From Fistulifera solaris (Eukaryota), in contig AP026169.1 of the NCBI GenBank assembly GCA_030295235.1, forward strand, positions 558,001 to 622,000: 64,000 nt of DNA. Reading direction: 5' to 3'. How positions within the stretch are numbered: position 1 is the stretch's first letter; every line of letters starts with the position of its first letter. The notes under the pieces are model-generated. The model did no database searches. It was given only the letters and a program-made list of their open reading frames with translations, and was not told the DNA's origin. A program made the position numbers and the translations under genes. Positions 1 to 57,100 of this stretch are shown piece by piece.

Positions 1-814
1 TTTTCAGACCAAGAACTAGAACAAGAGGCGACGATGAGAGCAGTGAATAGTGACTCTGATACCGCTGAACTCGAAGCACGTACAGAATCTGAAGCGGAAA
101 ATGCCGCTGAGTCGCCTTTGCCAAAAAAATGAAGACAACGACGATCATGAAGCTGTTGTAGACGAACCAATCCTTGATGCTCAGGGAAATCCGGGAAATT
201 ACACCGGTCTTGTATCAAAACGCACGCGTCGCCCCAACGGTGTTGGTAGACTTGTGTATGGAGATGGCAAACGGATCCATGAGGGCTTTTGGAAGGACGG
301 ACGCAAGGAAGGTCACGGAAGATGCCTATTCTTTCCACATCGTGATTTTCATGAAGGGGATTATCACGATAATCTTCGTAGCGGCAAAGGCATATATAAA
401 TGGAGCGACGGTAGGTGCTTTGAGGGTAATTATGTGAAAGACTTGAGAGACGGCTACGGTGTCTTCACTTACCCCAGCGGGGAAAAATATGAAGGAAATT
501 TCTGCGAAGGCCGTCGATCTGGCTACGGTCGGTTTACGTTTGACAAGGGTAGGAGTGTATACGAAGGTGAATGGAGTGATGGAAAGTATCATGGTTATGG
601 GTCTTTGCGCTGGGGACAAGGCTTTCATTACGAAGGTGAATTCGTCGACGGAAGATTTCACGGACATGGTAAGAAGTTGGACCCCCAAGGCCACGTGATT
701 CTCGAGGGCGAGTGGGTTGCTGGCAAATACCTCGATTTCGAAAACAAGGAAGACGATAAGTCATCGGAGCACTTTGATACAATAGTTGTCACTGAAGGCG
801 AAGAGGCTTACTAA
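1..814 (+). CDS. MORN-repeat protein, 5' end outside window; apparent frameshift in A7 run at 123-129
   Basis: Repeated YEGxW/FxxGxxxGxG motifs in ORF 50..814. Frame 1 from base 1 is an open acidic reading frame (FSDQELEQ...ESPLPK) that joins this ORF if one A is removed from the run. Confidence 0.85.
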
Positions 815-1185: not shown

Positions 1186-3371
1186 CTACTCAACGAGGTG
1201 CCCGTTCTCCCACACACCGTGTTTTTTCTTGCCATCAGCGGTAACTTCCATTCCAAGCCCATGTGCCACAGAATTTTTGAATTCACCCGTATACTTTGAT
1301 CCAGAAGCAGAGACGAGTTCACCATTGCCATCATACCGCCCTTCCTTCCATTCGCCTTCATAGTAACCTCCATCAAACTTGTAACGACCAAAACCTTCAA
1401 ACATGCCATCACAGAACTCTCCTTCATATACGTTGCCGTTGTGAAAGGCAAATTTTCCCTGGCCGTGACGCTTGTCCTCGCGAAACATTCCGGTGTATAC
1501 GTCCCCATTGTCCCATTTATAAACTCCTTTACCATGTCTAGCGTCAAATACAAACTCTCCTTCATAAGTGTCTCCATTGGGATTTAATAGCTTTCCCTTG
1601 CCATTCCATTGCCCATTAATCCAATCACCCGAGTAAAGTCGGCCACTATCATAGCTCATTTTACCAGTACCGTGCGGAAGCCCTTCTGACACGAGGAAAG
1701 TTCCAGTGTAACGCCCCGAATCACCGTATTTATCTCTTGATTGTACATTCGACACTGAGAAAAGAAACTTTTCGGTTGGCAATCCAGCTTCTTCGGCGGC
1801 TTTCTTCGCTGCAAGGGCGTCCGCCATCACACCATCATCAAAGAAGCAGTTGTACAGGAGTGGTTCCGCAGAGTCATCATCACTCGGCGCTGTCCCTGCC
1901 GGGCTGGGCAGATCCAACAAATTCGGCGGAGCAATGGATGCGATTCGAGCTAGAGGTTTAGGCTCTTGCGATGAAGCTGAGTCCAATCCCATGGGAGGAG
2001 GAGGAAGAATACTACCTTTTCTGTCTTGCGAGATCAGATTGGGGGATTGATCAGTAGCCCCTCGACTGAGTGGAAGAGCATTCAAAGACGATGTCAACAT
2101 ATCAACTGGCATTTCACCACTATCCCCAACTTCGCTACTATCAACCGTGATCTTGTTTTTCTTTTTTCCTTTGCGAATAGGCGGCGGACCGTTCATAATG
2201 GGGAAATCTGTCGGTTCCGCAGAGTGGGTCCGTACCAGCACGCCACGCACAGGTACCTGTAAAGCGCTTTTCTCGGCCACTCCAATCTTGAACTTGTTTC
2301 GCTCCGTGGCATGATGGGGCTTTGGAGGCTCTTTTGAATGTCCAACAAGCCTCCTCGGAAAGAGGCGAATAATTTTGACGGGTCATTGGCCAAATTGACA
2401 TCGGCATCGTTCATGTACGTGGAGCCGGTTGGCGTTTGCGCCTCCGAACGACTGGCTGGAGAAAAATCAGGAATTCCTTCTTCGAAACTACGCGATCTAC
2501 CCAATGAGGCTCTGTTCGGAACACTAGGTCCTGCCCGAGCGCGATTGGCTCTTTGAAAGAATTTCAGTTGACCTTGCATGCGTGGATCTTCTTGTGGAGA
2601 AGGCGAATTACTCCGGCTACGGGGTGGAAAGGGCGATGTGATCGATTTGTCTGGACTTCCCCTTCGATTCTGCTGATCTATCTCTACACGATTTGGTGAG
2701 GTCATGGAACTAGACGACCGTGCATCAGTATCGTCGTCCGTTTCAGCTTCCTCCTTTTGTTGCAATTGTGCTTCGTACTCCGCTTCCGCCTCCAGTTCGA
2801 GTTGTTTTTGGGTCGCCATAGTTTTGATCAACTTCAAGTCTTGTTGGATGGTCCGACGTAAGGCTCGAATGGTTTGATTCTGCTCAATTACAGTTGTTTC
2901 AGAGTCAGCCAGTCGTTGTTCCAACTTGGATATCTGCATCTTCAAACTCAAGACTTCTTTCTCCTTCGTACGCAACATCCAGTTCTGGACCTGTGACAAA
3001 CGTTTCAATGTGGAAGCCAAGTTATCTGTTTTCTGAAGGACTAAATGTGGAGCCAAGGACTCAACAAAAGTTTCGGATGATTCTGTCGTCTTGGGGGGAT
3101 CGCCCTCAGCCTCGCACTCGGCCATGACGTTCTTCGACGAAGTATTTGTCTGCAACTGCTTCACAACTGCAGCAAAGGACATTCTTTGTTGAATGCCGAC
3201 CGCCTTTTCCTCTGCCGTGCACATGTTGCAAGAGAGGATGGCATTGTTATCTTGCACCAAGATAGGGCAGCTAGGATGTCGCAAACATGTGCCCTTCTCA
3301 CTGATGCCAAGTGCTTCTTGCCAAACGATCTTTTCATCATTCTTTTCTCCTTTCTCTTGCTTTTCAGTCAT
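1186..3371 (-). CDS. Coiled-coil plus C-terminal MORN-repeat protein, with one frameshift near 2327
   Basis: ORF 2193..3371 (CxxH...CxxC motif, coiled coil) joins ORF 1186..2280 (about 7 MORN repeats) if one C is added: DIQKS-PPKPHHATERNKFKIGVAEKSA. Confidence 0.8.
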
Positions 3372-12698: not shown

Positions 12699-13778
12699 AT
12701 GAAAGGTTCATCGTGTGCATTCTTTGTTTCGATGCTTTCCTCCGTAAACGTCATTTATGCTTGGCTTGGTTCGACGACAAAGAAGAAGCCATTCTTCTCT
12801 ACCTTCTCATCAGCTTCTCGTCCTTCAATAACAAGGAAATTGTTCATGGACATTGAGCAAGATGCATTGGCTAAATCGTTTCGAATCGAAATTCCAGGTA
12901 TCGTGTCGGCACTGTCGATTCCTCGACACGTCCAGCATGCTGAAATCGATCCAGCAATCGCATCCAACGGAATGCCATGGCAGTCTTCGATTGATCCTCA
13001 ATATCGTAGTTTAGCAGACAATTCCAATAAACCCTTTTATCTACCATTTTGGGAATGGCAAATGGATTACATGAAAAAACATTTGACCAATCTCCAAGTC
13101 CTGCCGGTCGAAAGCAAGCAAGGTCATGATTTGTCCTATCGAAACAATGGGAAGGTCCGATTGCATACATGTCAGTGCTCTTCGGAAGAATACAAATGCA
13201 TCCGCATGACGGTCATGGACGGCGGTGCACGGACTCAAGTCTTCACTTCACTTTGGTATCCCCAACCCCACTTCAATCTACCCGTTTTGGGTATCGACCT
13301 GCTCCAATTTGGACAATCCAAACATCTCTGTATCGTCGACTTTCAACCGATTCAGGAAAATTCTTCAGATCAACCGTTTGAACAATTGCTGCAACCCATT
13401 CGTGATCAATACCCTTCTTTGCACGGAAAAATGACCCGGAGATTCTATGACGAAGATGCCTTTTTTTCCAAGCAGATGCTTTTGGGGAGAAGCGACCGCG
13501 CCGGGGCCAACGACCTGGTATACAAAGATTTGTTTCCGGCGTACCAGGCCTATGTTAACACACATGTTCAAATGGTCCAATCCGCGACGCCCAGTCCATC
13601 GACCGTGGCCGATGTATTGCAACGACATGCGGCCTATGATAACTACTCGGCCGCCCGCGATCCGGCACATGCCATGCTCGCGGCAACCTTTGGAAAAGAC
13701 TTTGCAGATGACTACGTTTATGATGTCCTGTTTCCGCTTTCGGATAGAGGCATCAGCGGTACATTTGATTCCTGCTGA
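12699..13778 (+). CDS. pebA: Ferredoxin-dependent bilin reductase, PebA-like (paralog 1), plastid-type presequence
   Basis: RMTVMDGG..TQVF...YP...LPVLGIDLLQF...IVDFQP...YDNYSAARDPAH...FG....DDYVYDVLFP; signal peptide ending IYA-W. Confidence 0.88.
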   Translation: MKGSSCAFFVSMLSSVNVIYAWLGSTTKKKPFFSTFSSASRPSITRKLFMDIEQDALAKSFRIEIPGIVSALSIPRHVQHAEIDPAIASNGMPWQSSIDPQYRSLADNSNKPFYLPFWEWQMDYMKKHLTNLQVLPVESKQGHDLSYRNNGKVRLHTCQCSSEEYKCIRMTVMDGGARTQVFTSLWYPQPHFNLPVLGIDLLQFGQSKHLCIVDFQPIQENSSDQPFEQLLQPIRDQYPSLHGKMTRRFYDEDAFFSKQMLLGRSDRAGANDLVYKDLFPAYQAYVNTHVQMVQSATPSPSTVADVLQRHAAYDNYSAARDPAHAMLAATFGKDFADDYVYDVLFPLSDRGISGTFDSC

Positions 13779-14013: not shown

Positions 14014-15115
14014 TCATGGTCGCGCGGCGCCCACCGTTTCCTTGACTCCTATTGGAGTTTGTGGTCGTTGTAATTGTTGTGGTCTTGATCGAGTCGTTGG
14101 CCGCTCACTCATACTGAACAAGAAATCATGGACAAAATCCATGGCCCATTCTTCCCCAAACATTGCCGTAAACAAACCCGTGGCCGGATCGCGTTCTGCT
14201 GAATACGTATCGTACGCTTTTTGTCGCTTCAACACCATGTCAATGTCCGCCTCCACTGGATCCACTTCGCGGATCAAATCCAAGTGCGTCTGGACGTAGG
14301 ATTGGAATGCCGGAAACAGTTCGTTCGAGATAATGGTTTCGTCTTCGAACCGCGAAAACAACATTTGTTGCGAAAAGAATTGTGTTTCATCGTAAAACTT
14401 GGAGGACATGCGTCCCTTGAGATTCTCGTACAGCTCCTTGATGGGTTGGAGTCGGTGTTCATAGGTAGTAGCGTGATCCTCTTCGTTTTCGTGCAAGGGC
14501 TGAAAGTCCACAATCGCCAAATATTTCTTGCGGTTAAAGGCCAACAAGTCGATTCCTAGTACAGGAAGATTGTATTTGGGGTCAGGGTAAAAGACAGCGT
14601 TGTAAACTTGTGTGTTTTCACCAGCATCGTAGTAGGTCATTCGAATCTTGCGATATTCGGAGGACGAGGCAGAAAAGGCTGACTATTCTAGCTTTCTTTT
14701 GGGTGTTCTCGTTGTACGAAAAGTCGGTTTTCCCGTTGGTGCACGGCATAACTCGTAAGTTTGTCAAATTCTCTTTCATAAACGACATGTGCCATTCCCA
14801 AAACGGCATGTAAAGCAGATCTTCCTCCGGGTATTTGGGGTCTATGGAGGATTTCCAAGGCATGCCTTGCGCGGCCTCCGCTTGAGAAATGCTGATGCTC
14901 GAAGGGTAACTATCATGAAGCAATTGATCGAGATTGTATCTAGCTTTTGCATCAATAAAGTCCTTTTCGGTATCCATGCGCATTTCGGTGGAGGAAACAA
15001 ATCTTGGCGATACCTCCTGCAGGCCGAGGAAAGCACTTTTTCGGGACGGAGAACCAATGTAAGCCTCCGTCACAACAACAGTAGCGGTCACAAACAGTGT
15101 ACGACAGGTCCTCAT
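14014..15115 (-). CDS. pebA: Ferredoxin-dependent bilin reductase, PebA-like (paralog 2); one extra base in run 14673-14676
   Basis: RMTYYDAGENTQVYNAVFYP...LPVLGIDLLAF...IVDFQPL...AYDTYSAERDPATGLF...FGEEWAMDFVHDFLF; signal ending TEA-Y. Removing one T gives ..VSLSASSSEYRKIRMT. Confidence 0.88.
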
Positions 15116-20503: not shown

Positions 20504-20876
20504 TTCTCTTAAAATTAGATCGAAGAACAGGAAACAAAAAGGAGTGCTTTTTGAGCAATATAACATCCGTCACCTTGTTATTGTTAACAATAATAAACAC
20601 AACGCGAAAACGCAATGATAAAGCAACGCTCAACACGCAACGCTAGCTAGGTGACTTGACATTCATAAGCATATTAGGGTCAAGGACAATAGCAAAAGTC
20701 GTGTTCAGAAACGACTCCGTATTCCGTCCGTAGCAAACTCAGAAACGGTACACATAGGTACAGAAAAGTTTTATTGTCGTTTCTCCTCCTAGTTCTTTCA
20801 CGCCATACGCTAGTTTACTCTTCACAATTTAAAGCAGGAATTTCTAGGGCCCATGGCCGACTAAACGCCCAGAATG

Positions 20877-20911
20877 TGACGCACGTAAACCATCAATTTC
20901 GCGCAACGTCA
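20877..20911 (+). promoter_or_regulatory. TGACGC (20877-20882) and ACGTCA (20906-20911), CCRE/bZIP-type motifs upstream of the repeat-protein gene
   Basis: Same hexamers as the CO2/cAMP-responsive elements of the Phaeodactylum ptca1 promoter; 150-190 bp before the ATG at 21063. Short motifs, so chance occurrence is possible. Confidence 0.35.
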
Positions 20912-21062
20912 CAATCCTCGGTAGAGCGCCTCTCTTTTTATCGAGAAAAACAGCCGTCAAATAATCGCAAAGTTGCAACAACGACGTCGTGACACATCGT
21001 TCATTACATCTCATTTCTTATAAAGCCTCTGCTCTAATTGAAAGCATTATCAACCTATTAGA

Positions 21063-22523
21063 ATGAAGTTCTCTGTTGCAGCCGCCTTGTTTGCTCTCGT
21101 GCCCTCTCAGGGTTTCCAGGTATCGATGTCGTCCACCGGATACTTCGATTCTATGAGCCGAGGAGCGAGCAAACCATCGAACTTCTCTCCCTTTGGGCGA
21201 AAAATGAGTGACGGAAAGAGTTCCAGTGCCTATCTCAATCAAGTGTCCGGAGCCGCACCTTCTTATTCTGCTCCAGCGGCCTCTAGTTACGGTGGTTCCT
21301 CTCCTCCGTCATACTCAGCTCCTGCTACTTCAGCTTATCAACCAGCCCCGTCTGCTCCTGCAGCCGTCTCCTCCTTCGGCGGTGGCTCTGCAAAGCCCGC
21401 AACTTACAGTCCTTTCGGGAAGAAGATGGCTGACGGAAAGGGATCTAGTGCTTACCTCAATGCTGTCGCCGGATCATCTCCTTCGTACTCGGCTCCGGCC
21501 GCTTCAGCTTATCAACCGGCCCCTGCTGCGCCTGCACCCGTCTCCTCCTTTGGTAGTGGCGCTGCAAAGCCCGCCAGCTATTCTCCTTTTGGCAAGAAGA
21601 TGGCCGACGGAAAGGGATCTAGTGCATACCTCAATGCTGTCGCTGGATCATCTCCTTCGTACTCGGCTCCGGCCACTTCGGCTTATCAACCGGCCCCTGC
21701 TGCGCCTGCACCCGTCTCCTCCTTTGGTAGTGGCGCTGCAAAGCCCGCCAGCTATTCTCCTTTTGGCAAGAAGATGGCCGACGGAAAGGGATCTAGTGCA
21801 TACCTCAATGCTGTCGCTGGATCATCTCCTTCGTACTCGGCTCCGGCCACTTCGGCTTATCAACCGGCCCCTGCTGCGCCTGCACCCGTCTCCTCCTTTG
21901 GTAGTGGCGCTGCAAAGCCCGCCAGCTATTCTCCTTTTGGCAAGAAGATGGCCGACGGAAAGGGATCTAGTGCATACCTCAATGCTGTCGCTGGATCATC
22001 TCCTTCGTACTCGGCTCCGGCCACTTCGGCTTATCAACCGGCCCCTGCTGCGCCTGCACCCGTCTCCTCCTTTGGTAGTGGCGCTGCAAAGCCCGCCAGC
22101 TATTCTCCTTTTGGCAAGAAGATGGCCGACGGAAAGGGATCTAGTGCATACCTCAATGCTGTCGCTGGATCATCTCCTTCTTACTCTGCTCCAGCCGCAG
22201 TGGCCCCTGTCACTCCCAGCTACCAGCCCGCCCCAGCTGCCCCCGCTCCAGCATCAACCAGTAGCTATCTAAGCATGGGAGGAGGTGGCGCAGCCAAACC
22301 CAATTATTCTCCTTTTGGTCGCAAGATGGGAGACAGCAAGTCTTCGAGCACTTACCTTGAAAACGTCGGTAATGCGGCACCGGTTTCTAGCTCTTACAGC
22401 TCCTTCCACAGCTCTCTATCCCAGGCTTCGTCGGCGGCACCCAAGCCCCAAGAAAATCGCTTCTTTCTTCAAGATATTGCCTCACAAGGAACTTACCTTG
22501 ATGCCACCAAGAGCCGGTGGTAA
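21063..22523 (+). CDS. Plastid-targeted intrinsically disordered tandem-repeat protein (candidate pyrenoid/Rubisco linker)
   Basis: Signal MKFSVAAALFALVPSQG-F; S/A/P/G/Y-rich; seven KPx(1,2)[YF]SPFG[KR]KM motifs, each followed by a [AT]YL[NE] motif; 58-aa period. Confidence 0.85.
   Translation: MKFSVAAALFALVPSQGFQVSMSSTGYFDSMSRGASKPSNFSPFGRKMSDGKSSSAYLNQVSGAAPSYSAPAASSYGGSSPPSYSAPATSAYQPAPSAPAAVSSFGGGSAKPATYSPFGKKMADGKGSSAYLNAVAGSSPSYSAPAASAYQPAPAAPAPVSSFGSGAAKPASYSPFGKKMADGKGSSAYLNAVAGSSPSYSAPATSAYQPAPAAPAPVSSFGSGAAKPASYSPFGKKMADGKGSSAYLNAVAGSSPSYSAPATSAYQPAPAAPAPVSSFGSGAAKPASYSPFGKKMADGKGSSAYLNAVAGSSPSYSAPATSAYQPAPAAPAPVSSFGSGAAKPASYSPFGKKMADGKGSSAYLNAVAGSSPSYSAPAAVAPVTPSYQPAPAAPAPASTSSYLSMGGGGAAKPNYSPFGRKMGDSKSSSTYLENVGNAAPVSSSYSSFHSSLSQASSAAPKPQENRFFLQDIASQGTYLDATKSRW
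21392..22195 (+). repeat. Coding tandem repeat, 174-bp unit, about 4.5 near-identical copies (diverged copies flank it)
   Basis: ggcaagaagatggccgacggaaagggatctagtgcatacc at 21591, 21765, 21939 and 22113. Confidence 0.95.
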
Positions 22524-22927
22524 GGCAACCAGAGAAAGATCTATATAATCAAATTCTGTTACAGTACCGCGATATGAAAGGAATAGGCACTGCTGATGGC
22601 CCTAAAATAAGATACATTTCATCCGAATCTCTTCTTTTTAAGTTTTACGTTATTTCGTGGACTTGATCCTTTGACCTTTCCGGTACCGGTACCTAAAGAT
22701 TTATTTACTGCAATCAGTTTTTTCGTAAATGTTTTTACCGTGCAACTTATTTACTAGCACCAAGTACTGGGTACCGGTAAGAGGTTGGACTCTAATCCGT
22801 CTGTCTGTGTCCCGCATTAACAAGCATAGCGTCCAACAAAACGTGAACCGTGAACGAGGTTGATTCAAATTTCCCACCATGAAGACACCAAAAGATCCTC
22901 TATCCATACAAAGTATATCGTCTCAAC

Positions 22928-25900
22928 ATGAACAAGCGTCGACGATTCTCTCCGCTTGGAGCTTCTGAATTCGCAGCCATCTTGAATGGAGAAGATCCGG
23001 GCGCGATTCATGATGCATTGCGTCGATTCGTTCAAACGGTCCGCGAAGAAAGACGGGCTGCGGTAGGCGATTCGTCCCTCGAAGTGGAAAAGACTAGTGA
23101 ATCGTCCACCAGCGAGGATGAAGAAGACAAGCCTCTGCAAAAGAAACAAAAGTTTCGAAAAGAAGACTCGTGGAAAGAGGACACTGCGAAGTATGATGTC
23201 CCTTTTGTTGGGACTTCGGTTGCGAGAGGAGATACAAGTCGGGTTGTCGCGGGAGAATGGCCAACCGGCTTGTTGAAAGCATACGTGGAAAAGAGTCCAA
23301 GAGCTATCGAATTCAATCATCTTTTGCCAGGAGGACCTATTCATAAAATACTACTTCGCCGGAAACATGGCAGAACTTGGCACAAGATTCAGAAATTGTA
23401 TCTCCAGGCTGTATCGGAGCTCATTACTATGGCCGTTCCTCTCGAATGCATCAAGAATGATACCATGCCAGGTCAATATACATCTAATAAGGACAGCTCG
23501 ACCCGCCAAATCGTTGAAACCTTGGTGTCCTCTCACTTTGCTGGATGGTGCTTGTTGTTGAAGGAAGAAACTGGGAATGGAAAGGGAAAGGCGGGTGTCG
23601 TTGGTGGCTGTGGGGAACTTGCTCAGTACATTATTCGAATCTTTCATCGACTGACCCGGATCAGCTCGGAAAAGGCTCGCCACATTATGCGCGATGTAGA
23701 GCAGAGCATTTCTGAACATGTTTTGCGTTTCCTTCTTAAGAAGCCGATCAAAGAGGGGGAAGAGTACGCTGCCAGTTCCAGAGCTGCATCCAAAATTGAA
23801 CTTCTTGAATGGGTCGGCTGGTTGACATCGATTCCTGACCATTCTATCCTTTCTCGACTGTGTTCACCCGGTGCTCGTGAACGAAAGATATCTCCCGGCC
23901 TTTTATACATGTCACTCAGGGACGGTTCGGCGGATTTTGGACATGACAGTGTGGCGTCTGCTATCGGGCTCGTTGTTCGAAAGCTACGAGATGTATTGTT
24001 GAGTGAGGATTCTCGTTCTCGGAAGATACTGATAGACTTATTCTCCAGAGATGTGGTACAAAGTTTGTGCCAAGTATCTGTTCATGCGCCTGTACTGTCA
24101 TCCCAAAATAGTGTCGAAAAGGTGTTACAGTTCATCGACAAAACCGACAATCAAGTCGAAGCAGTCGGGTCAGAGGCCCGTCGTTTATTACTTATCTTGA
24201 TCTGCAATCCTGAGAAGTCCCCTTTTGTTCAGAGCATTCGAAAGAACTTAAAGAGCACCAAGCGGACACGTCCAGTGATATTACAAATCGTTCAGCATTT
24301 TTTAAAATCTGAGAGTGGCGAGATTACAAAGCTCGTTCTTCAGACGGTGCGCGTGAATCCTTCGCTTTTTGGACCGCTTCTACAAAATATCTCGTTCCCC
24401 GACATGAAAAGAGCATTTGCCTTCATAGCGCGGGTCAACTTTGCTGCCAATTTTATCCTTCATGGGCCGTCGATTGAGGAATGTCTGAAAAGTGATGGAT
24501 CATATCAGAGCATCGAGGACGATGCAGCGCTTCTCCATTTGTTCCTTCCGTGCAACATGAAAGATACGATTCTCCGTAAAGCGCTACAGAGTGGGAACAC
24601 TCTTATTGTAGCGGAAGTACTGAAATTGATTGTTTTTGTCTTCAAAAGGATATGTTACTACCCGGCTGCTTCGCAAGATGATGATGAAAAGGTGCTTTTG
24701 GAGCCTCCGCGACTTTGGAATTTGTTGAAAGCATGGATTCCAGAGCCCAGCTTACTTGTTTCTATTTTAGTGAAATTTGATGCGTCGCAGGGGTTGACTT
24801 CGCTGGCAGTTACTAATCGAGTGTGTCTCGTCCTGAATTTTCTCCTTGATCATATTCCTGAGGTTTTTATGGTTTTACTTTTGACTGGTCGAAACTCCTT
24901 TCAAAAGATAGCAACTTTAATTCTGCGAGATCTACTATCCAAGGCGCATTGCTGAGAACGATTATGCTAATGCTGCAAGCAAATCAGGTGAGTCGCTAAA
25001 ACGTATTCTTGGTTGCTTACCATGCTCTTTACTCTAGCCTTACCTTTGTTTCCCGAGTAGCTGCGACTACCCCCGGGGACGGAAGCCAAGTTCTGCTACG
25101 ATCTTTTGCACATCCTCCTACACACAAAATTTGTACACGTGTACGATTTAGCAAAGAAGACTGTTTTATATTACTTATCTGCTCATTTGGGAAACCACGG
25201 ACATTCTGAACAGAGATCATTTGTTGCGGATGAAATTTCGTGTTGGATTGACGGCCTTTCTATTGCTACTTTGAGTGATTTCTTTTCTGTTCTCCAGCAA
25301 ATCTTACAGCAGCCGTATCACTTTACACTTCAGTTTGCAAAAATTTGGCTAGATTGTGTTGGAGATAAAGCAGTACCGCGAATGCCTTTTACTGCTCTGA
25401 TGATTCAATCGCTTCGCTTGGTCCATCAATTGTCCTCCCAGTATACTCTCTTGTACTCGCAAGTTGCGACAAATGCCTTATTGTTTCATAATGACCCTGT
25501 CGCACTTGCAACTGTCATTAAGGAAGTTCATCGCCAGGAAAAGTTAGGTGGAGCAAGCGTATGCATCGACCGACTAGTGCAGCTAATTGACGAGCTATTT
25601 TTCAATGAAAGATCAGGCGAATCTAAGCAGCTCATTACACTGGGCGAACACCTTGAGTCTCTATTTTCGTCTAGTCGACATCCTCTCCTTTGTCTGATCC
25701 AAAAAGTTAAGATTCGAACAAGTCTGTCAATCAGTAATCCTTCATTGGGTTGGGAGGACGTATCATTGCTCGTCCGCCAATGTTCCAATCAAATGATGTG
25801 GCATGAAACTGATCGAAAGGCACTTTCAAATGGATTGAAAAGTGCTCTACCAGGTCTTCTATTGGTAAGTCTTCAAGCGTTTGAGTGCTACATTCCCTGA

Positions 25901-51144: not shown

Positions 51145-54100
51145 ATGGCTACGCAAAATCAACGACGACGCGGAGCTGTCGTCGCCTTGTTGGTGCTGAT
51201 GTGCACTTCTGTTGTGTCACAAAATGTGGAGTGCCGACTAAAGCCAGATGAATCGGGGGCGCTCAAGTACGTTTGTGAAGTCGATCAGCCACTTCCGACG
51301 GTGAATGCCATGACAAACAATTCGTCCGAAGCACCGACAGCTGCACCAACCGTAACCATGCGGACGATCGTTCCACAACTGCAGTATCTAGGAGAACCCG
51401 TCAATATTCAAACACCCTTGGAAAACTGTCAAGGAGATTGCGATACCGATTGGGACTGCGGATACGGTCTCAATTGTTTTCATCGCCGCGCCAAAGAGCC
51501 CGTGCCGGGATGCGGAAGAGATGGAATCCGAGCCGTGGATTACTGCTATATTCCTCGACCGGGCGAGCTTGTTGTTGTTGGATCAAACGCGACCTCCAAC
51601 ATTTTTTATCCGTTTGGGCAATGTGAAGGCCACTGTGAGAGCGACGCGGATTGTATCTCGGGTTTGCAGTGTTTTCTTCGTGATGATTTCGAAGCAGTTC
51701 CTGGTTGTAAAGGCGTCGGTGCTCAAGGAACAAACTACTGCTACCTCGCCCCTCCGAGTGATCAACCTTCTTCCGTGCAATCCGATCAGCCTTCCGACGT
51801 ACCGTCGCTAGCGCCTTCCGTCGACATATCTGCAAAGCCGTCTTCTGAAATGTCCGCCACACCGAGCACAGACGTCTTTGTTGAGACAGAAGGTACACGC
51901 TTCCAATTCGCCGGTTTCCCTCCTCATAATACTCTACTGGGGATGTGTGAAGGACACTGCGCTTCCGATGCGGATTGCGAACTCGGATTGGTTTGTGAGC
52001 GACGTGCCCCATTCGACAAAATGTCAAGTTGCTCAGGAGTAGGAATGATCGGTGTAAAATACTGCGTGGAACCTCAGGATGGTCAGTTGAGATTGATCGG
52101 AAACGAGAAAGACGCGTTGTATTTTCCCTTCGGCAAGTGTGAAGGTCATTGTACATGCAGCCTGGATTGTCGTGCCGGTTTGCAATGTTTCCGCCGCGAT
52201 GATGTGGAAAGTGTTCCAGGATGCAGCGGTAGTGGTGCCCCTGGAAAATATTATTGTTACGATCCCGACGATTCTGACTTTAATGGGTCTGAAGAGAAGA
52301 CAGTATCGCCTTCCGTGATGGGATCGTTAGAAACAATTAGCGATTTTCCCAGTGAATTGCCCAGCGATCTGCCAAGTGACTTGCCCAGCGATCTGCCCAG
52401 TGATTTACCGACTACAATCTCCTCCGACTACCCTTCTACGGAACCAAGTCAAAGTCCAGTTTTGTTCCGGCCCACCGAACGAGGTTCGTATCGCCCAAGC
52501 TCGACTCCTTCCCTTCGCCCTACAGTTCATCCATCGGCTTCGTCATCTTCAGTGCCAACTAGCCATCAATCAGGGGCTCCCTCTCAACAGAAAACTATGA
52601 CCCCTACGAGCTTCAGAGGAAATGATCTGGAGGAGTCAAGTGTCCCCAGTTCCGAGCCCTCGACTGCAGTATTGTCAGACCTCCCGTCGATTGTCCCCAC
52701 TAGGCAGCAATCGTCTAATCCGACTGCCACAAAAGATTCATTGGTACCATCTGCATCTCCCAGTGTCGTTCTTGATTCTACCGTATCTTCAAGTACTCCT
52801 TCGGTGGCCCCAGCTGAATCTCAAAGTGCCACACCTTCTTCAACAATCACTTCCGATATGCCTTCTACAGCACCGACAGTGCAACAATCAGCTGAGCCCT
52901 CTGGGGAACCTTTATCAATGTCGCCATCGAGTATTTCCACCACCATGCCGTCAAATCTCGCTTCTTCGAACGTCCCCTCAATTCCACCCTCCGTTCAGCA
53001 ATCGTCGGAGCCGTCTGCAAAAGCTACTTCTTTGGCACCATCCGCTGTGCCATCAGTCGCAGTCACTTCGAGTACACCGTCGCTTTTACCTTCCGTCCAG
53101 CAGTCGTCGGAACCCTCTCGAACTACTTCTTCGGCACCTTCTGACAATAAAAGCGCCCAACCCTCGACTGCGGCCAGTACGAATGTACCGTCCTTATCAC
53201 CTTCCGTTCGAGAATCATCTGATCCTACAGTGCAAGCAGCCTCATCAGATACCCCAAGTGCCGCGCCATCAAATATACGGTCAATCCAAGTGTCACCCGA
53301 ACCCTCTATGATGACCACTTCCTTGGCCCCATCTGATACTCCCAGTGCCGCACCATCAATCAGAAGGTCTGTCCAAGAATCATCTGAACCCTCAGTGACA
53401 ACCACTTCATCGGCGCCGTCCGACAGTCCAAGCACAACGCCATCGTCTTTGCCTTCTGTTTGGGAATCGTTCGAGCCCTCAGTGAAGGCTACTTCATCAG
53501 CCCCATCTAATATTCCCAGTGGCGCACCATCAAATGTACGATCCATCCAGCCTTCAGCTGAGCCCTCATTGAAAGCTACTTCAATGGCTCCGTCTGACAG
53601 TCCAAGCACGATGCCATCCATTGCGGTCGCTTCGGATTCACCAACATCTCTGCCTTCTGTTCGAGAGTCATTCGAGCCCTCAGTGAAGACTACTTCATCA
53701 CCCCCTTCTGATATGCCGAGTGCCGCACCATCAAATGTACGGTCCATCAAAGAGTCAGACGAGCCCTCAGTGACGACCATGTCGATGGCCCCGTCCGACA
53801 AACCAAGTGCCTTGCCATCGACTGCTGCAACTTCGGATGCTCCATCGTTTTCACCTTCCATTCAGGAGTCGTTCGAGCCCTCAGTAAAAACGACGTCCTT
53901 TGCCATTTCTGATATTCCGAGTGCCGCGCCATCAAATTTACGGTCCATCGAAGACTCAGATGAGCCATCAGTGACAACCATTTCGATGACTCCGTCCGAT
54001 AATCCAAGCACTTTGCCATCGATAGCTGCTACTTCGGATGCTCCATCACTTTTACCTTCTGTAACTACATCTGATATACCGAGTGCTGCACCGTCAGTTG

Positions 54101-57100
54101 AAGCCTATTCGGATGTCCCCTCGCCTTCGCCGTACTCTGATTCTCCAAGTAACATGCCATCCACTGCAGGATCTTCGGACACACCATCACTATCGCCGTC
54201 TGTCAATCAATCTTCTGAACCCTCAATTGGAGTAGAATCGTCGGCGCCATCAACGCTCGATAACAACCAAGTTGGAGACAGCTCCGACGCGCCTAGTTCT
54301 GTCCCCTCACCAGTGGCAGTAGGGTCAAAAGAGCTTGAATACTTAGGACTGCCTCCCTTTGTTGACTTCCGTCTATCCGAGTGCCAGGGGGACTGTGACA
54401 GTGACCTCGATTGCGACTTTGGACTGAACTGTTTTAGGCGAACTGCCTTTGAGCCTGTTCCTAATTGCCTAGGCACCGGGATCAGGGCGATAGATTATTG
54501 CTACGTCCCTCCTTCAGGTCATTTGGTTGTGACTAACATGGGACCCAATATTTCTCTAAAGAAGTGCGAAGGGCATTGTAAGACAGATTCCGATTGTGTT
54601 GGCGCGCTGAGATGCTTCCAGCGCCAGTATCTACAGGAAGTTCCTGGATGCGACGGGCTTGGGGCTGTTGGTACCGACTACTGTTACGATCCCAACGATG
54701 AGGTCCCTTCCAGTCCAAACCAGCCACCGTTGCCGTCTCCTGCCGTCATTTCAATTACTCCAAGTGATTTGCCATCTACTGCAGCCACGTCAGATGTTCC
54801 GTCACTTTTGCCTTCTGATGAACCATCGTCAGTACCTTCAACCATACCATTATCAGTTCCCCCTCTACTTTTGACAATCAAACTGGAGACAAATCCGACG
54901 CGCCTAGTGACGTCCCCTCGCCAGCGGTCGATGGGTCCAAAGAGCTCGACTTTATCGATACACCTCCCTTCGGGGATGATCCCTTAGGCGAGTGCCAGGG
55001 AGATTGTGACAGCGACCTTGATTGCGACTTTGGGTTGAACTGCTTCAGGCGATCGTCTTTCGAGCCTGTGCCAGGATGTACAGGGAGTGGAAGGGAAGGT
55101 GTCAACTATTGCTACGTTCCACCTCCAGGTCGCTTGGTTGTGACAGGTATGGGGCCCAATCTTTCGTTGGAAAAGTGTGAAGGTCATTGTGAGGTCGATT
55201 CGGATTGTGCTGGTAAACTGAAATGCTTCCAGCGCCTGTATCTTCAAGAAGTTCCTGGATGTAACGGTCTTGGTGCCATTGGCACCAACTATTGTTATGA
55301 TCCCGCAGCAGCTAATGAGCTCGAGACGCCATCGCTAAGTCCAGCAGCTTCGCTCTCGTATTATCCAAGTGATTTGCCATCTACTGCAGCCACGTCAGAT
55401 GTTCCGTCACTTTTGCCTTCTGATGAACCATCGTCAGTACCTTCAACCATACCATTATCAGTTCCCCCCTCTACTTTTGACAATCAAACTGGAGACAAAT
55501 CCGACGCGCCTAGTGACGTCCCCTCGCCAGCGGTCGATGGGTCCAAAGAGCTCGACTTTATCGATACACCTCCCTTCGGGGATGATCCCTTAGGCGAGTG
55601 CCAGGGAGATTGTGACAGCGACCTTGATTGCGACTTTGGGTTGAACTGCTTCAGGCGATCGTCTTTCGAGCCTGTGCCAGGATGTACAGGGAGTGGAAGG
55701 GAAGGTGTCAACTATTGCTACGTTCCACCTCCAGGTCGCTTGGTTGTGACAGGTATGGGGCCCAATCTTTCGTTGGAAAAGTGCGAAGGTCATTGTGAGG
55801 CCGATTCGGATTGTGCTGGTAAACTGAAATGCTTCCAGCGCCTGTATCTTCAAGAAGTTCCTGGATGTAACGGTCTTGGTGCCATTGGCACCAACTATTG
55901 TTATGATCCCGAAGCAGCTAATGAGCTCGAGACGCCATCGCTAAGTCCAGCAGCTTCGCTCTCGTATTATCCAAGTGATTTGCCATCTACTGCAGCCACG
56001 TCAGATGTTCCGTCACTTTTGCCTTCTGATGAACCATCGTCAGTACCTTCAACCATACCATTATCAGTTCCCCCCTCTACTTTTGACAATCAAACTGGAG
56101 ACAAATCCGACGCGCCTAGTGACGTCCCCTCGCCAGCGGTCGATGGGTCCAAAGAGCTCGACTTTATCGATACACCTCCCTTCGGGGATGATCCCTTAGG
56201 CGAGTGCCAGGGAGATTGTGACAGCGACCTTGATTGCGACTTTGGGTTGAACTGCTTCAGGCGATCGTCTTTCGAGCCTGTGCCAGGATGTACAGGGAGT
56301 GGAAGGGAAGGTGTCAACTATTGCTACGTTCCACCTCCAGGTCGCTTGGTTGTGACAGGTATGGGGCCCAATCTTTCGTTGGAAAAGTGTGAAGGTCATT
56401 GTGAGGTCGATTCGGATTGTGCTGGTAAACTGAAATGCTTCCAGCGCCTGTATCTTCAAGAAGTTCCTGGATGTAACGGTCTTGGTGCCATTGGCATCAA
56501 CTATTGCTACGATACGAACGAAGCACCTGACATTGATATGCCTTTTGCATTCCCATCTTCCGCCCCAACTTTGGTTGGAGTAGAGTCTTTGAATCCAGCT
56601 ACACGTGAAACCGTTTATCCTACGGGACTTTCATTAGCTTGTGATATGGACATCGATCAGCGAAGGATCGGAATCACACAAGTGATTCGAACGGTGTCAT
56701 CTACGGAAAGTTTAGTCGACCCAATGACAAACCAGCACAAAGCATTAAACTGGATAGTCAATCATGACCGATTCCGTTTGTGTCCTGGGGACCCAAATGT
56801 TTTGCAGCGCTACATTCTTGCTCTCTTGTACTTCCAAACGTCCGGTGATTCATGGAAGAGATGCTCTGCGAATCAGACAGATGACCTGGCCTGTGAAGGT
56901 GAACCTTTCTTGAGCCCTTCTTATGAATGTTTTTGGGGTGGTATTCGGTGCGAGGCCAACGTTACCGTTACAGCGATTCACCTTGATGACAATAAACTTT
57001 TTGGACCTTTACCGTCAGAAGTTAGCGCATTAGAGGATCTTGTTGAATTGGATTTGGATAATAACGCATTAGTAGGAAAGCTTCCTTCATCACTCGGAAA

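Follow-up and report, generated by a model that had tools for sequence, protein, structure and literature searches.

The P0001 gene and its repeats

We analyzed a 64,000-nucleotide (nt) stretch of the Fistulifera solaris genome (assembly GCA_030295235.1, contig AP026169.1, positions 558,001 to 622,000 of the forward strand; hereafter the window, whose own numbering is used throughout). Our subject is a gene of this diatom, P0001, with a complete and intronless coding sequence at 21063–22523 on the forward strand. The open reading frame (ORF) starts with ATG, encodes 486 amino acids (aa) before its stop codon, and has neither an internal stop nor the need for an intron. Its start and end are supported by relatives that begin with MKF[ST]V and end in [KR]RW (P0026, P0004, and P0007). 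The product is predicted to be a plastid-targeted, disordered, and basic repeat protein, and we tentatively consider it a scaffold of the pyrenoid matrix. A forward-strand ORF overlapping it in another frame (21460–22272, 270 aa) was discarded as a by-product of the repeats.

The protein begins with MKFSVAAALFALVPSQG, followed by FQV. Its features, all encoded on the forward strand, are a predicted signal peptide (residues 1–17, h-region 5–12; 21063–21113), a transit-peptide-like region starting at Phe18 (FQVSMSSTGYFDSMS; 21114–21158), seven copies of a repeated module, and a C-terminal region (22380–22523). Module 1 (RGASKPSNFSPFGRKMSDGKSSSAYLNQVSGA; 21159–21254) and module 7 (22281–22376, preceded by SSYLSMGGGG) are divergent copies. 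Modules 2 to 6 (21381–21476, 21555–21650, 21729–21824, 21903–21998, and 22077–22172) and their Ala/Pro/Ser/Tyr spacers form a tandem array at 21304–22196, in which Tandem Repeats Finder recognizes 5.1 copies with a 174-nt (58-aa) period, matching at 95% and free of indels. The C-terminal region comprises a block conserved in the family, P-[VM]-S-x-S-Y-[SN]-S-[FM]-[HQ]-x-S, and then the unique tail (FFLQDIASQGTYLDATKSRW, ending TYLDATKSRW) that the initial annotation had pointed out.

Of all residues, 76% are Ser, Ala, Pro, Gly, Tyr, or Lys. The chain has no Cys and carries its only Trp at the C-terminal position 486. Residues 18–486 include 33 Lys or Arg and only 12 Asp or Glu, for a net charge of +21. 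We located all seven of the motifs that had been described, K-P-x(1,2)-[YF]-S-P-F-G-[KR]-K-M: the SPFG[KR]K cores have their first Ser at residues 42, 116, 174, 232, 290, 348, and 416, each is preceded by K-P-x(1,2)-[YF], and each is accompanied by [AT]-Y-L-[NE] 16 residues after that aromatic. Two extra YL sites lie at residues 402 and 478. The initial annotation had taken the two motifs as two kinds of binding site; since both always occur together at a near-fixed distance, they are better described as halves of one composite module. Its claim of a 58-aa period stands for the five central units only, as the motif-to-motif distances are 74, 58, 58, 58, 58, and 68 aa, with the outer spacings of 74 and 68 aa departing from it.

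Units 3, 4, and 5 of the array are identical in DNA, and unit 2 differs at 14 nt (nine synonymous and three nonsynonymous codons). Between modules 1 and 3, 33 of 90 nt differ, with the motif retained. Tandem duplication could by itself account for the repetition in P0001. That the repetition goes beyond chance follows from the retention of the motif in the divergent module 1 and from the recurrence of the module in other proteins with different spacers (see below). The absence of any base difference among the three successive units at 21555–22076 points to amplification or gene conversion in the very recent past, and short-read contigs fail to span these repeats. Given three identical 174-nt units, the number of units in P0001 hinges on the assembly. 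Alleles may differ in copy number, and therefore in how many stickers they encode, or the array may be misassembled.

Contigs from a public run (X1) fall into two types across 20700–23000, one identical to the window and the other ∼8% different, including in intergenic DNA (e.g., 32 differences in one 397-nt contig). The source organism may therefore carry haplotypes or homoeologous copies that have diverged strongly. All 22 of the coding differences listed between the window and the second type are synonymous and fall at third codon positions; 20 further differences lie outside this list. Two insertions are among the differences upstream of the ATG. The P0001 gene is thus intact and under purifying selection. 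The bins at 21778–21931 have no X1 contig cover, as expected for identical repeats. Since the contigs cover coding and flanking DNA equally, they carry no information on expression.

Predicted plastid targeting and the protein family

According to the ASAFind rule, diatom plastid proteins carry a signal peptide followed by Phe, Trp, Tyr, or Leu, and a high-confidence call needs a transit score above 2 (PMC4329603). The reported specificity is 0.99 for high-confidence calls and 0.82 for high- and low-confidence calls together (PMC4329603). We applied the published ASAFind matrix (its supplementary file 5) to sites located past the hydrophobic core and obeying the (−3,−1) rule. In P0001, the sole compatible site after the h-region is VPSQG-FQV, the one that had been noticed at SQG-F; it scores 5.30 for cleavage and 4.55 for transit (threshold 2). 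Among 14 N termini of the family described below, including that of the Mayamaea pseudoterrestris protein GKY90407.1 (site SAAT-FVP, scores 6.62 and 5.53), the +1 residue is Phe in 12, Tyr in one, and Leu in one, and the transit score exceeds 2 in 12. The signal peptides themselves have diverged across the family, while the aromatic +1 residue has been retained. Beyond the signal peptide, P0001 has no hydrophobic segment, and thus nothing points to a protein of the thylakoid lumen, a transmembrane protein, or one anchored by glycosylphosphatidylinositol (GPI). Within the window, the products of two neighboring genes, a bilin reductase (IYA-W) and a DUF819 protein (AVS-FLLP), have presequences of the same style. 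Plastid targeting of P0001, as claimed initially, is therefore supported in silico by the matrix score and by the +1 residue kept across the family.

A signal peptide is also what a secreted or cell-wall protein would have, and P0001 could be a low-complexity component of the frustule, of mucilage, or of an adhesive, with the Phe at +1 being incidental. Its Ser/Ala/Pro/Gly/Tyr/Lys-rich repeats recall wall-associated, hydroxyproline-rich glycoproteins, and the specificity of just 0.82 for ASAFind calls of either confidence leaves room for such a case. We consider it very unlikely. The strongest argument is the retention of the +1 residue in spite of the diverged signal peptides (Phe, Tyr, or Leu in all 14 N termini), to which the transit scores of 12 of these 14 may be added. 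An RxL propeptide site and KxxK or pentalysine clusters are features of the biosilica-associated silaffins and cingulins of diatoms; P0001 contains no RxL, no KxxK, no Cys, and no C-terminal GPI-like hydrophobic segment. The window itself encodes a mucin-like ORF of secretory type (51145–54987), which differs from P0001 in being acidic and Cys-rich and in having no aromatic +1 residue; no plastid site of this kind is found in it, the best score being 1.76.

P0001 is not an orphan, and this is the new element of the analysis: it belongs to a family of ∼30 sequences, all unnamed or "hypothetical" and none with a Pfam domain, this total including cluster members besides direct search matches. A word-seeded search with P0001 gave five relatives. 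An exhaustive HMMER search of 1.84 billion representatives gave 10 matches at E ≤ 0.001, nine of which are relatives sharing the short motif; the other, P0010, is an unrelated repeat protein of the D-G-K/V-A-G-G type and was removed by inspection, as was P0025, a 55-aa cluster member without the motif. Searches with a profile of nine members (A1) and with the member P0016 yielded 17 and six matches, respectively. All family sequences come from ENA, JGI/IMG, and Logan assemblies, with the exception of GKY90407.1. The exact P0001 sequence is absent from a collection of 15 billion proteins; Pfam gave no family at E ≤ 1 for P0001, and the ESM Atlas gave no usable match. In a metagenome scan with a family alignment (A2), 146 stretches matched and none was confirmed by tblastn. 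We found no description of this family, nor of a second diatom linker, in the literature, most subscription-journal papers lying outside the coverage of the search; within that coverage, this diatom family is previously undescribed.

The members share a composite module of ∼32 aa, present in five to 11 copies per protein; of the Ala/Pro/Ser-rich spacers between the copies, only the composition is conserved. Across the family it can be written K-[KP]-x-[SN]-[YF]-S-[PG]-[FYV]-[GS]-x-K-[PMWF]-x(5-9)-[SG]-Y-[LM]-[DNSG]-x-[VLM]. A third aromatic element, [DN]-Y-[LM]-x-[SA]-[LM]-x-G, frequently stands ahead of it and takes the form SSFGSG in P0001. In 72 module instances from 14 proteins, Lys occurs at −4 in 58%, Ser, Asn, or Thr at −1 in 99%, and Lys at +6 in 79%; none of these positions was fixed outright by the search pattern, and the filter, which demanded one Lys or Arg near the core, somewhat favors both Lys positions. 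We also compared P0001 with 13 relatives against shuffled controls. The 25-aa module core reached an order-specific z ≥ 3.0 in 12 of them (maximum, 9.4), and a P0001 spacer of equal length did so in four (maximum, 3.3), meaning that the module is conserved in the order of its residues, and the spacer mainly in its composition.

Conservation extends to both ends of the protein. P0001, P0026, P0021, P0003, P0004, and P0011 have in common an N-terminal block, G-F-x-[VL]-[ST]-M-S-S-x-x-Y-[LF]-[DE], which in P0001 is carried from its Phe onward by the transit-peptide-like region, as well as the C-terminal block given above. Residues G17, F18, M22, S23, S24, and Y27 are invariant in alignment A2, and S442, S444, Y445, S447, S451, A455, and Y478 are invariant in the C-terminal region of the family alignment. 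The C termini of P0026, P0018, and P0022/P0030 read [KR]-[KR]-W or SRW, as does that of P0001 (SRW; 22509–22520), and proteins of the P0006 and P0017 types carry F-G-K-K-W within every module. It may be that these basic-Trp elements, whether terminal or repeated, act as a short docking motif of their own.

The sole named relative found is GKY90407.1, the hypothetical protein MPSEU_000014600 of M. pseudoterrestris (Bacillariophyceae). Like P0001, it has a plastid-type presequence, and it contains at least 10 modules, of the form GDYLSAMSGS...KKSYAPGGGSMKVVKE[ST]GYL[GS]NL. Unlike P0001, it is 1256 aa long, the core of its modules is YAPGG rather than YSPFG, and between presequence and modules (residues ∼60–330) lies an acidic (isoelectric point [pI] 5.1), Glu/Lys/Gln-rich and coiled-coil-like region of ∼270 aa. 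The latter could be either an oligomerizing head on an array of stickers or the result of two merged gene models.

Disorder, proposed function, and neighboring genes

Taking the predicted local distance difference test (pLDDT) of AlphaFold2 as a proxy for disorder, we obtained a mean of 35.6 for P0001 as a single sequence (483 of 486 residues below 50) and of 44.1 with a nine-sequence alignment (422 of 486 residues below 50), with no helix or strand in either model. The pI of P0001 is 9.73; in the family it exceeds 9 in 25 of the 28 tabulated sequences (P0025 left out), and is lower in P0021 (8.5) and in P0022/P0030 (6.2–6.7). The predicted disorder, the basic charge, and a multivalent design of stickers and spacers are thus supported, and the initial annotation of a disordered sticker-and-spacer protein holds in silico, with the module conserved over the spacer.

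The FLIPPer criteria for Rubisco linkers comprise disorder and repeating structured elements spaced by 20–120 residues (PMC11570498), and we counted repeating interaction elements against their minimum of three. P0001 is predicted to be disordered, and its seven modules lie 58–74 aa apart, within that range; its pI is above the value of 8 used as a filter in a preprint on Ulva (bioRxiv 10.64898/2026.07.16.738900). Because this presequence, disorder, charge, and set of spaced modules are combined, among such repeat proteins in the cited literature, only in Rubisco linkers (EPYC1, CsLinker, SUPA1, and PYCO1), we tentatively suggest that P0001 is a disordered and basic repeat protein that is imported into the plastid and serves the pyrenoid matrix as a multivalent scaffold. 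It would link Rubisco in the manner of PYCO1 and EPYC1, without being detectably homologous to either. This is a possibility that we stop short of calling probable. Its stromal and pyrenoid location, Rubisco as its partner, and condensation we infer only. Under this hypothesis, P0001 would first be imported into the plastid. Each of the seven ∼32-aa modules (K-P-x-x-[YF]-S-P-F-G-K-K-M-x-D-G-K-x-S-S-x-Y-L-N-x-V) would then dock, via its aromatic and Lys residues, onto a conserved surface of form ID Rubisco. Spacers of ∼25 aa, rich in Ala, Pro, Ser, and Tyr, would hold the modules apart so that one chain could bridge several holoenzymes, and the spacer tyrosines would contribute weak self-association. 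Docking, bridging, and Tyr-mediated self-association together would drive condensation.

Several points weigh against this hypothesis. No experiment or dataset connects P0001 or its relatives to Rubisco or to the pyrenoid. Its Ala/Pro/Ser/Tyr/Lys composition is also that of secreted hydroxyproline-rich or wall-associated proteins. The sites scored for targeting were located with our own hydrophobic-core search and a crude (−3,−1) rule, in place of SignalP 3.0 NN, the first step of ASAFind. Family searches gave no match in UniRef and one in NCBI (GKY90407.1); the family is not evident in annotated proteomes of model diatoms, which argues against a universal role in diatoms. P0001 has none of the PYCO1 motifs, and in five PDB searches at E ≤ 10, with P0001, P0003, P0017, and the profiles A1 and A3 as queries, the only match was a chance one to a WD40 FSPDG turn; no chain of PYCO1 was among the results, the presence of PYCO1(452–592) in the PDB copy searched being unconfirmed. 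FLIPPer expects repeating structured elements, and none of the seven conserved modules of P0001 is predicted to fold. Moreover, FLIPPer-type features are shared by 13 proteins in Chlorella and eight in Ulva, of which one in each is the linker (PMC11570498; bioRxiv 10.64898/2026.07.16.738900).

The last numbers, with 12 of 13 and seven of eight such proteins not being the linker, also favor a second interpretation: that P0001 is imported into the plastid and multivalent there, and that its partner is not Rubisco. It would then tether or organize some other structure, such as the PyShell lattice, a different stromal condensate, the nucleoid or RNA, or thylakoid membranes with their acidic lipids, among them those that penetrate the pyrenoid. 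The same evidence of targeting, disorder, and charge applies; a net charge of +21 suits acidic lipids or nucleic acids, and the combination of modules with an acidic, coiled-coil-like region of ∼270 aa in GKY90407.1 suggests a structural tether. Nevertheless, no nucleic acid- or membrane-binding domain was detected with Pfam (no families), there is no hydrophobic segment past the signal peptide, Lys and Arg constitute only ∼7% of residues, and the repeat proteins of such design in the cited literature are all Rubisco linkers. We regard a partner other than Rubisco as somewhat unlikely. If P0001 does bind Rubisco, it would reveal how red-type Rubisco condenses beyond one model species, and synthetic pyrenoids would gain a second sticker, independent of the first. 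Should it not bind, the family still constitutes a group of unstudied disordered plastid proteins.

Other genes of the window can be described more briefly. Two ferredoxin-dependent bilin reductase genes are adjacent at 12699–13778 (forward strand) and 14014–14640 (reverse strand) (PF05996; E = 7e-44 and 3e-49, respectively). The former encodes the diatom plastid presequence IYA-W mentioned above; the ORF of the latter begins within the domain, so that a 5′ exon has probably been missed by the simple ORF call. Two genes for MORN-repeat proteins are neighbors at 101–814 (forward strand) and 1186–2196 (reverse strand) (PF02493; E = 6e-29 and 3e-32, respectively). The mucin-like ORF at 51145–54987 (forward strand, 1280 aa) has a signal peptide without an aromatic +1 residue, no Pfam match, and overlapping ORFs in other frames. 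Several of its units are Cys-rich (C-x-G-[DH]-C-x-[ST]-D-x-D-C...G-L-x-C-F...V-P-[GN]-C...Y-C-Y), and its long mucin-like middle is acidic, rich in Ser, Pro, and Thr, and contains repeats of ∼50 aa; judged from these features, its product looks like a secreted or cell-surface glycoprotein.

Comparison with PYCO1 and green-lineage linkers

PYCO1 (Phatr3_J49957), of Phaeodactylum tricornutum, is the Rubisco linker of a red-type pyrenoid (PMC10288592). It contains six repeats of ∼80 aa and is targeted to the plastid with high confidence according to ASAFind. Its sticker, KWSPR/Q, binds RbcS through an essential Trp, four stickers forming a tetrad on the small subunits; self-association is driven by GTGYNP motifs, and C-terminal helices of the AAEWGSMNQ type bind the large subunit (PMC10288592). 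Bacterial form IC Rubisco is not recognized by PYCO1.

The two proteins are alike in several respects. Both are nucleus-encoded diatom proteins with an ASAFind-type presequence, mostly disordered and basic (the pI of PYCO1 is ∼10). Both consist of tandem repeats with a conserved half that is rich in Lys or Arg and has an aromatic-Ser-Pro core, with Tyr-bearing low-complexity sequence between the repeats and a distinct C-terminal region containing Trp. They differ in the repeats themselves (six of ∼80 aa in PYCO1, versus seven modules 58–74 aa apart in P0001) and in the kind of evidence: localization, Rubisco binding, and phase separation have been shown experimentally for PYCO1 and are hypothetical for P0001. 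A motif scan of P0001 gave no match to KWSP or WSP, nor to GTGYNP or GYNP; Tyr is abundant in its spacers, in other contexts (PSYSAP, SAYQP).

The initial annotation had left room for a divergent homolog of PYCO1 in which K..[YF]SP replaces KWSP. A true homolog would derive from a common ancestral repeat, with the sticker changed beyond recognition; such a protein could still be a pyrenoid linker, so that this explanation overlaps with the function proposed above. In its favor, the two proteins have a common architecture: after a presequence come repeats with one basic, conserved half and one low-complexity half bearing Tyr, and the C terminus is special. The sequences K-W-G-P-G-K-S-T and K-F-G-P-T-K-S-N in P0003, P0004, and P0011 recall KWSPRGGS, and [DN]-Y-[LM]-S-x-[LM] recalls the RbcL-binding AAEWGSMNQ. 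These likenesses, including that of [YF]-S-P-x-G to W-S-P-R-G and of [DN]-Y-[LM]-S-x-[LM] to E-W-G-S-M-N, are leads only: they span four to five residues each and could be due to chance. P0001 lacks KWSP, WSP, and GTGYNP; the HMMER search of 1.84 billion representatives, in a library that carries no names, gave only the short-motif relatives and one unrelated protein; no PYCO1 chain was among the PDB matches, within the limit stated above; and the PYCO1 paper reports that a BLAST search by its authors found no homologs in other algae (PMC10288592). We find common descent from PYCO1 highly improbable. With no PYCO1 motifs, a period of 58 rather than ∼80 aa, and no PYCO1 match in the five PDB searches, we did not file P0001 as a member of the PYCO1 family; on these sequence comparisons, homology is not supported.

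The core of the module, [YF]-S-P-[FD]-G-[KR]-K, also resembles the FSPDG[KR] turn of WD40 repeats, at chance level (PDB chain 7mq8_LO, E = 0.72). The corresponding match to PWP2 was rejected as a chance short match, P0001 being without the 40-residue WD periodicity. The likeness may be a hint of a sticker that adopts a tight turn and not a helix.

Diatom pyrenoids account for about one-fifth of global CO2 fixation (bioRxiv 2023.10.26.564148). According to the PYCO1 paper, BLAST homologs of this protein are absent beyond Phaeodactylum, where the only one is a short isoform in the same genome (PMC10288592), and another study indicates no known linker in Thalassiosira pseudonana (bioRxiv 2023.10.26.564148). 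A different family of linkers is therefore to be expected in other diatoms. The P0001 family is a concrete and directly testable candidate for what condenses Rubisco in most diatoms. In a broader form of the hypothesis, the linker used widely among diatoms to condense Rubisco would be this family and not PYCO1. By binding a conserved surface of form ID Rubisco, the K-x-x-Y-S-P-F-G-K-K...S-Y-L-[DN]-x-V module would serve as a portable "pyrenoid address"; PYCO1 would then be either a replacement confined to Phaeodactylum or a derivative altered past recognition. We deem this broader form unlikely. If true, it would supply the missing linker for diatoms without a known one, and a second red-type sticker for engineering.

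The linkers of the green lineage offer the other comparison. EPYC1 of Chlamydomonas, CsLinker of Chlorella, and SUPA1 of Ulva are, like P0001, disordered and basic. They contain five to six or more evenly spaced short binding elements ∼40–60 aa apart, an arrangement similar to that of P0001. Between lineages, sequence conservation is poor and the architecture is kept (PMC11570498; bioRxiv 10.64898/2026.07.16.738900). P0001 differs from these linkers in its targeting signal, which is a bipartite diatom presequence. It differs also in its putative mode of binding: the binding elements of green linkers are predicted or observed helices on form IB Rubisco, whereas the modules of P0001 have no predicted helix, and their partner would be form ID.

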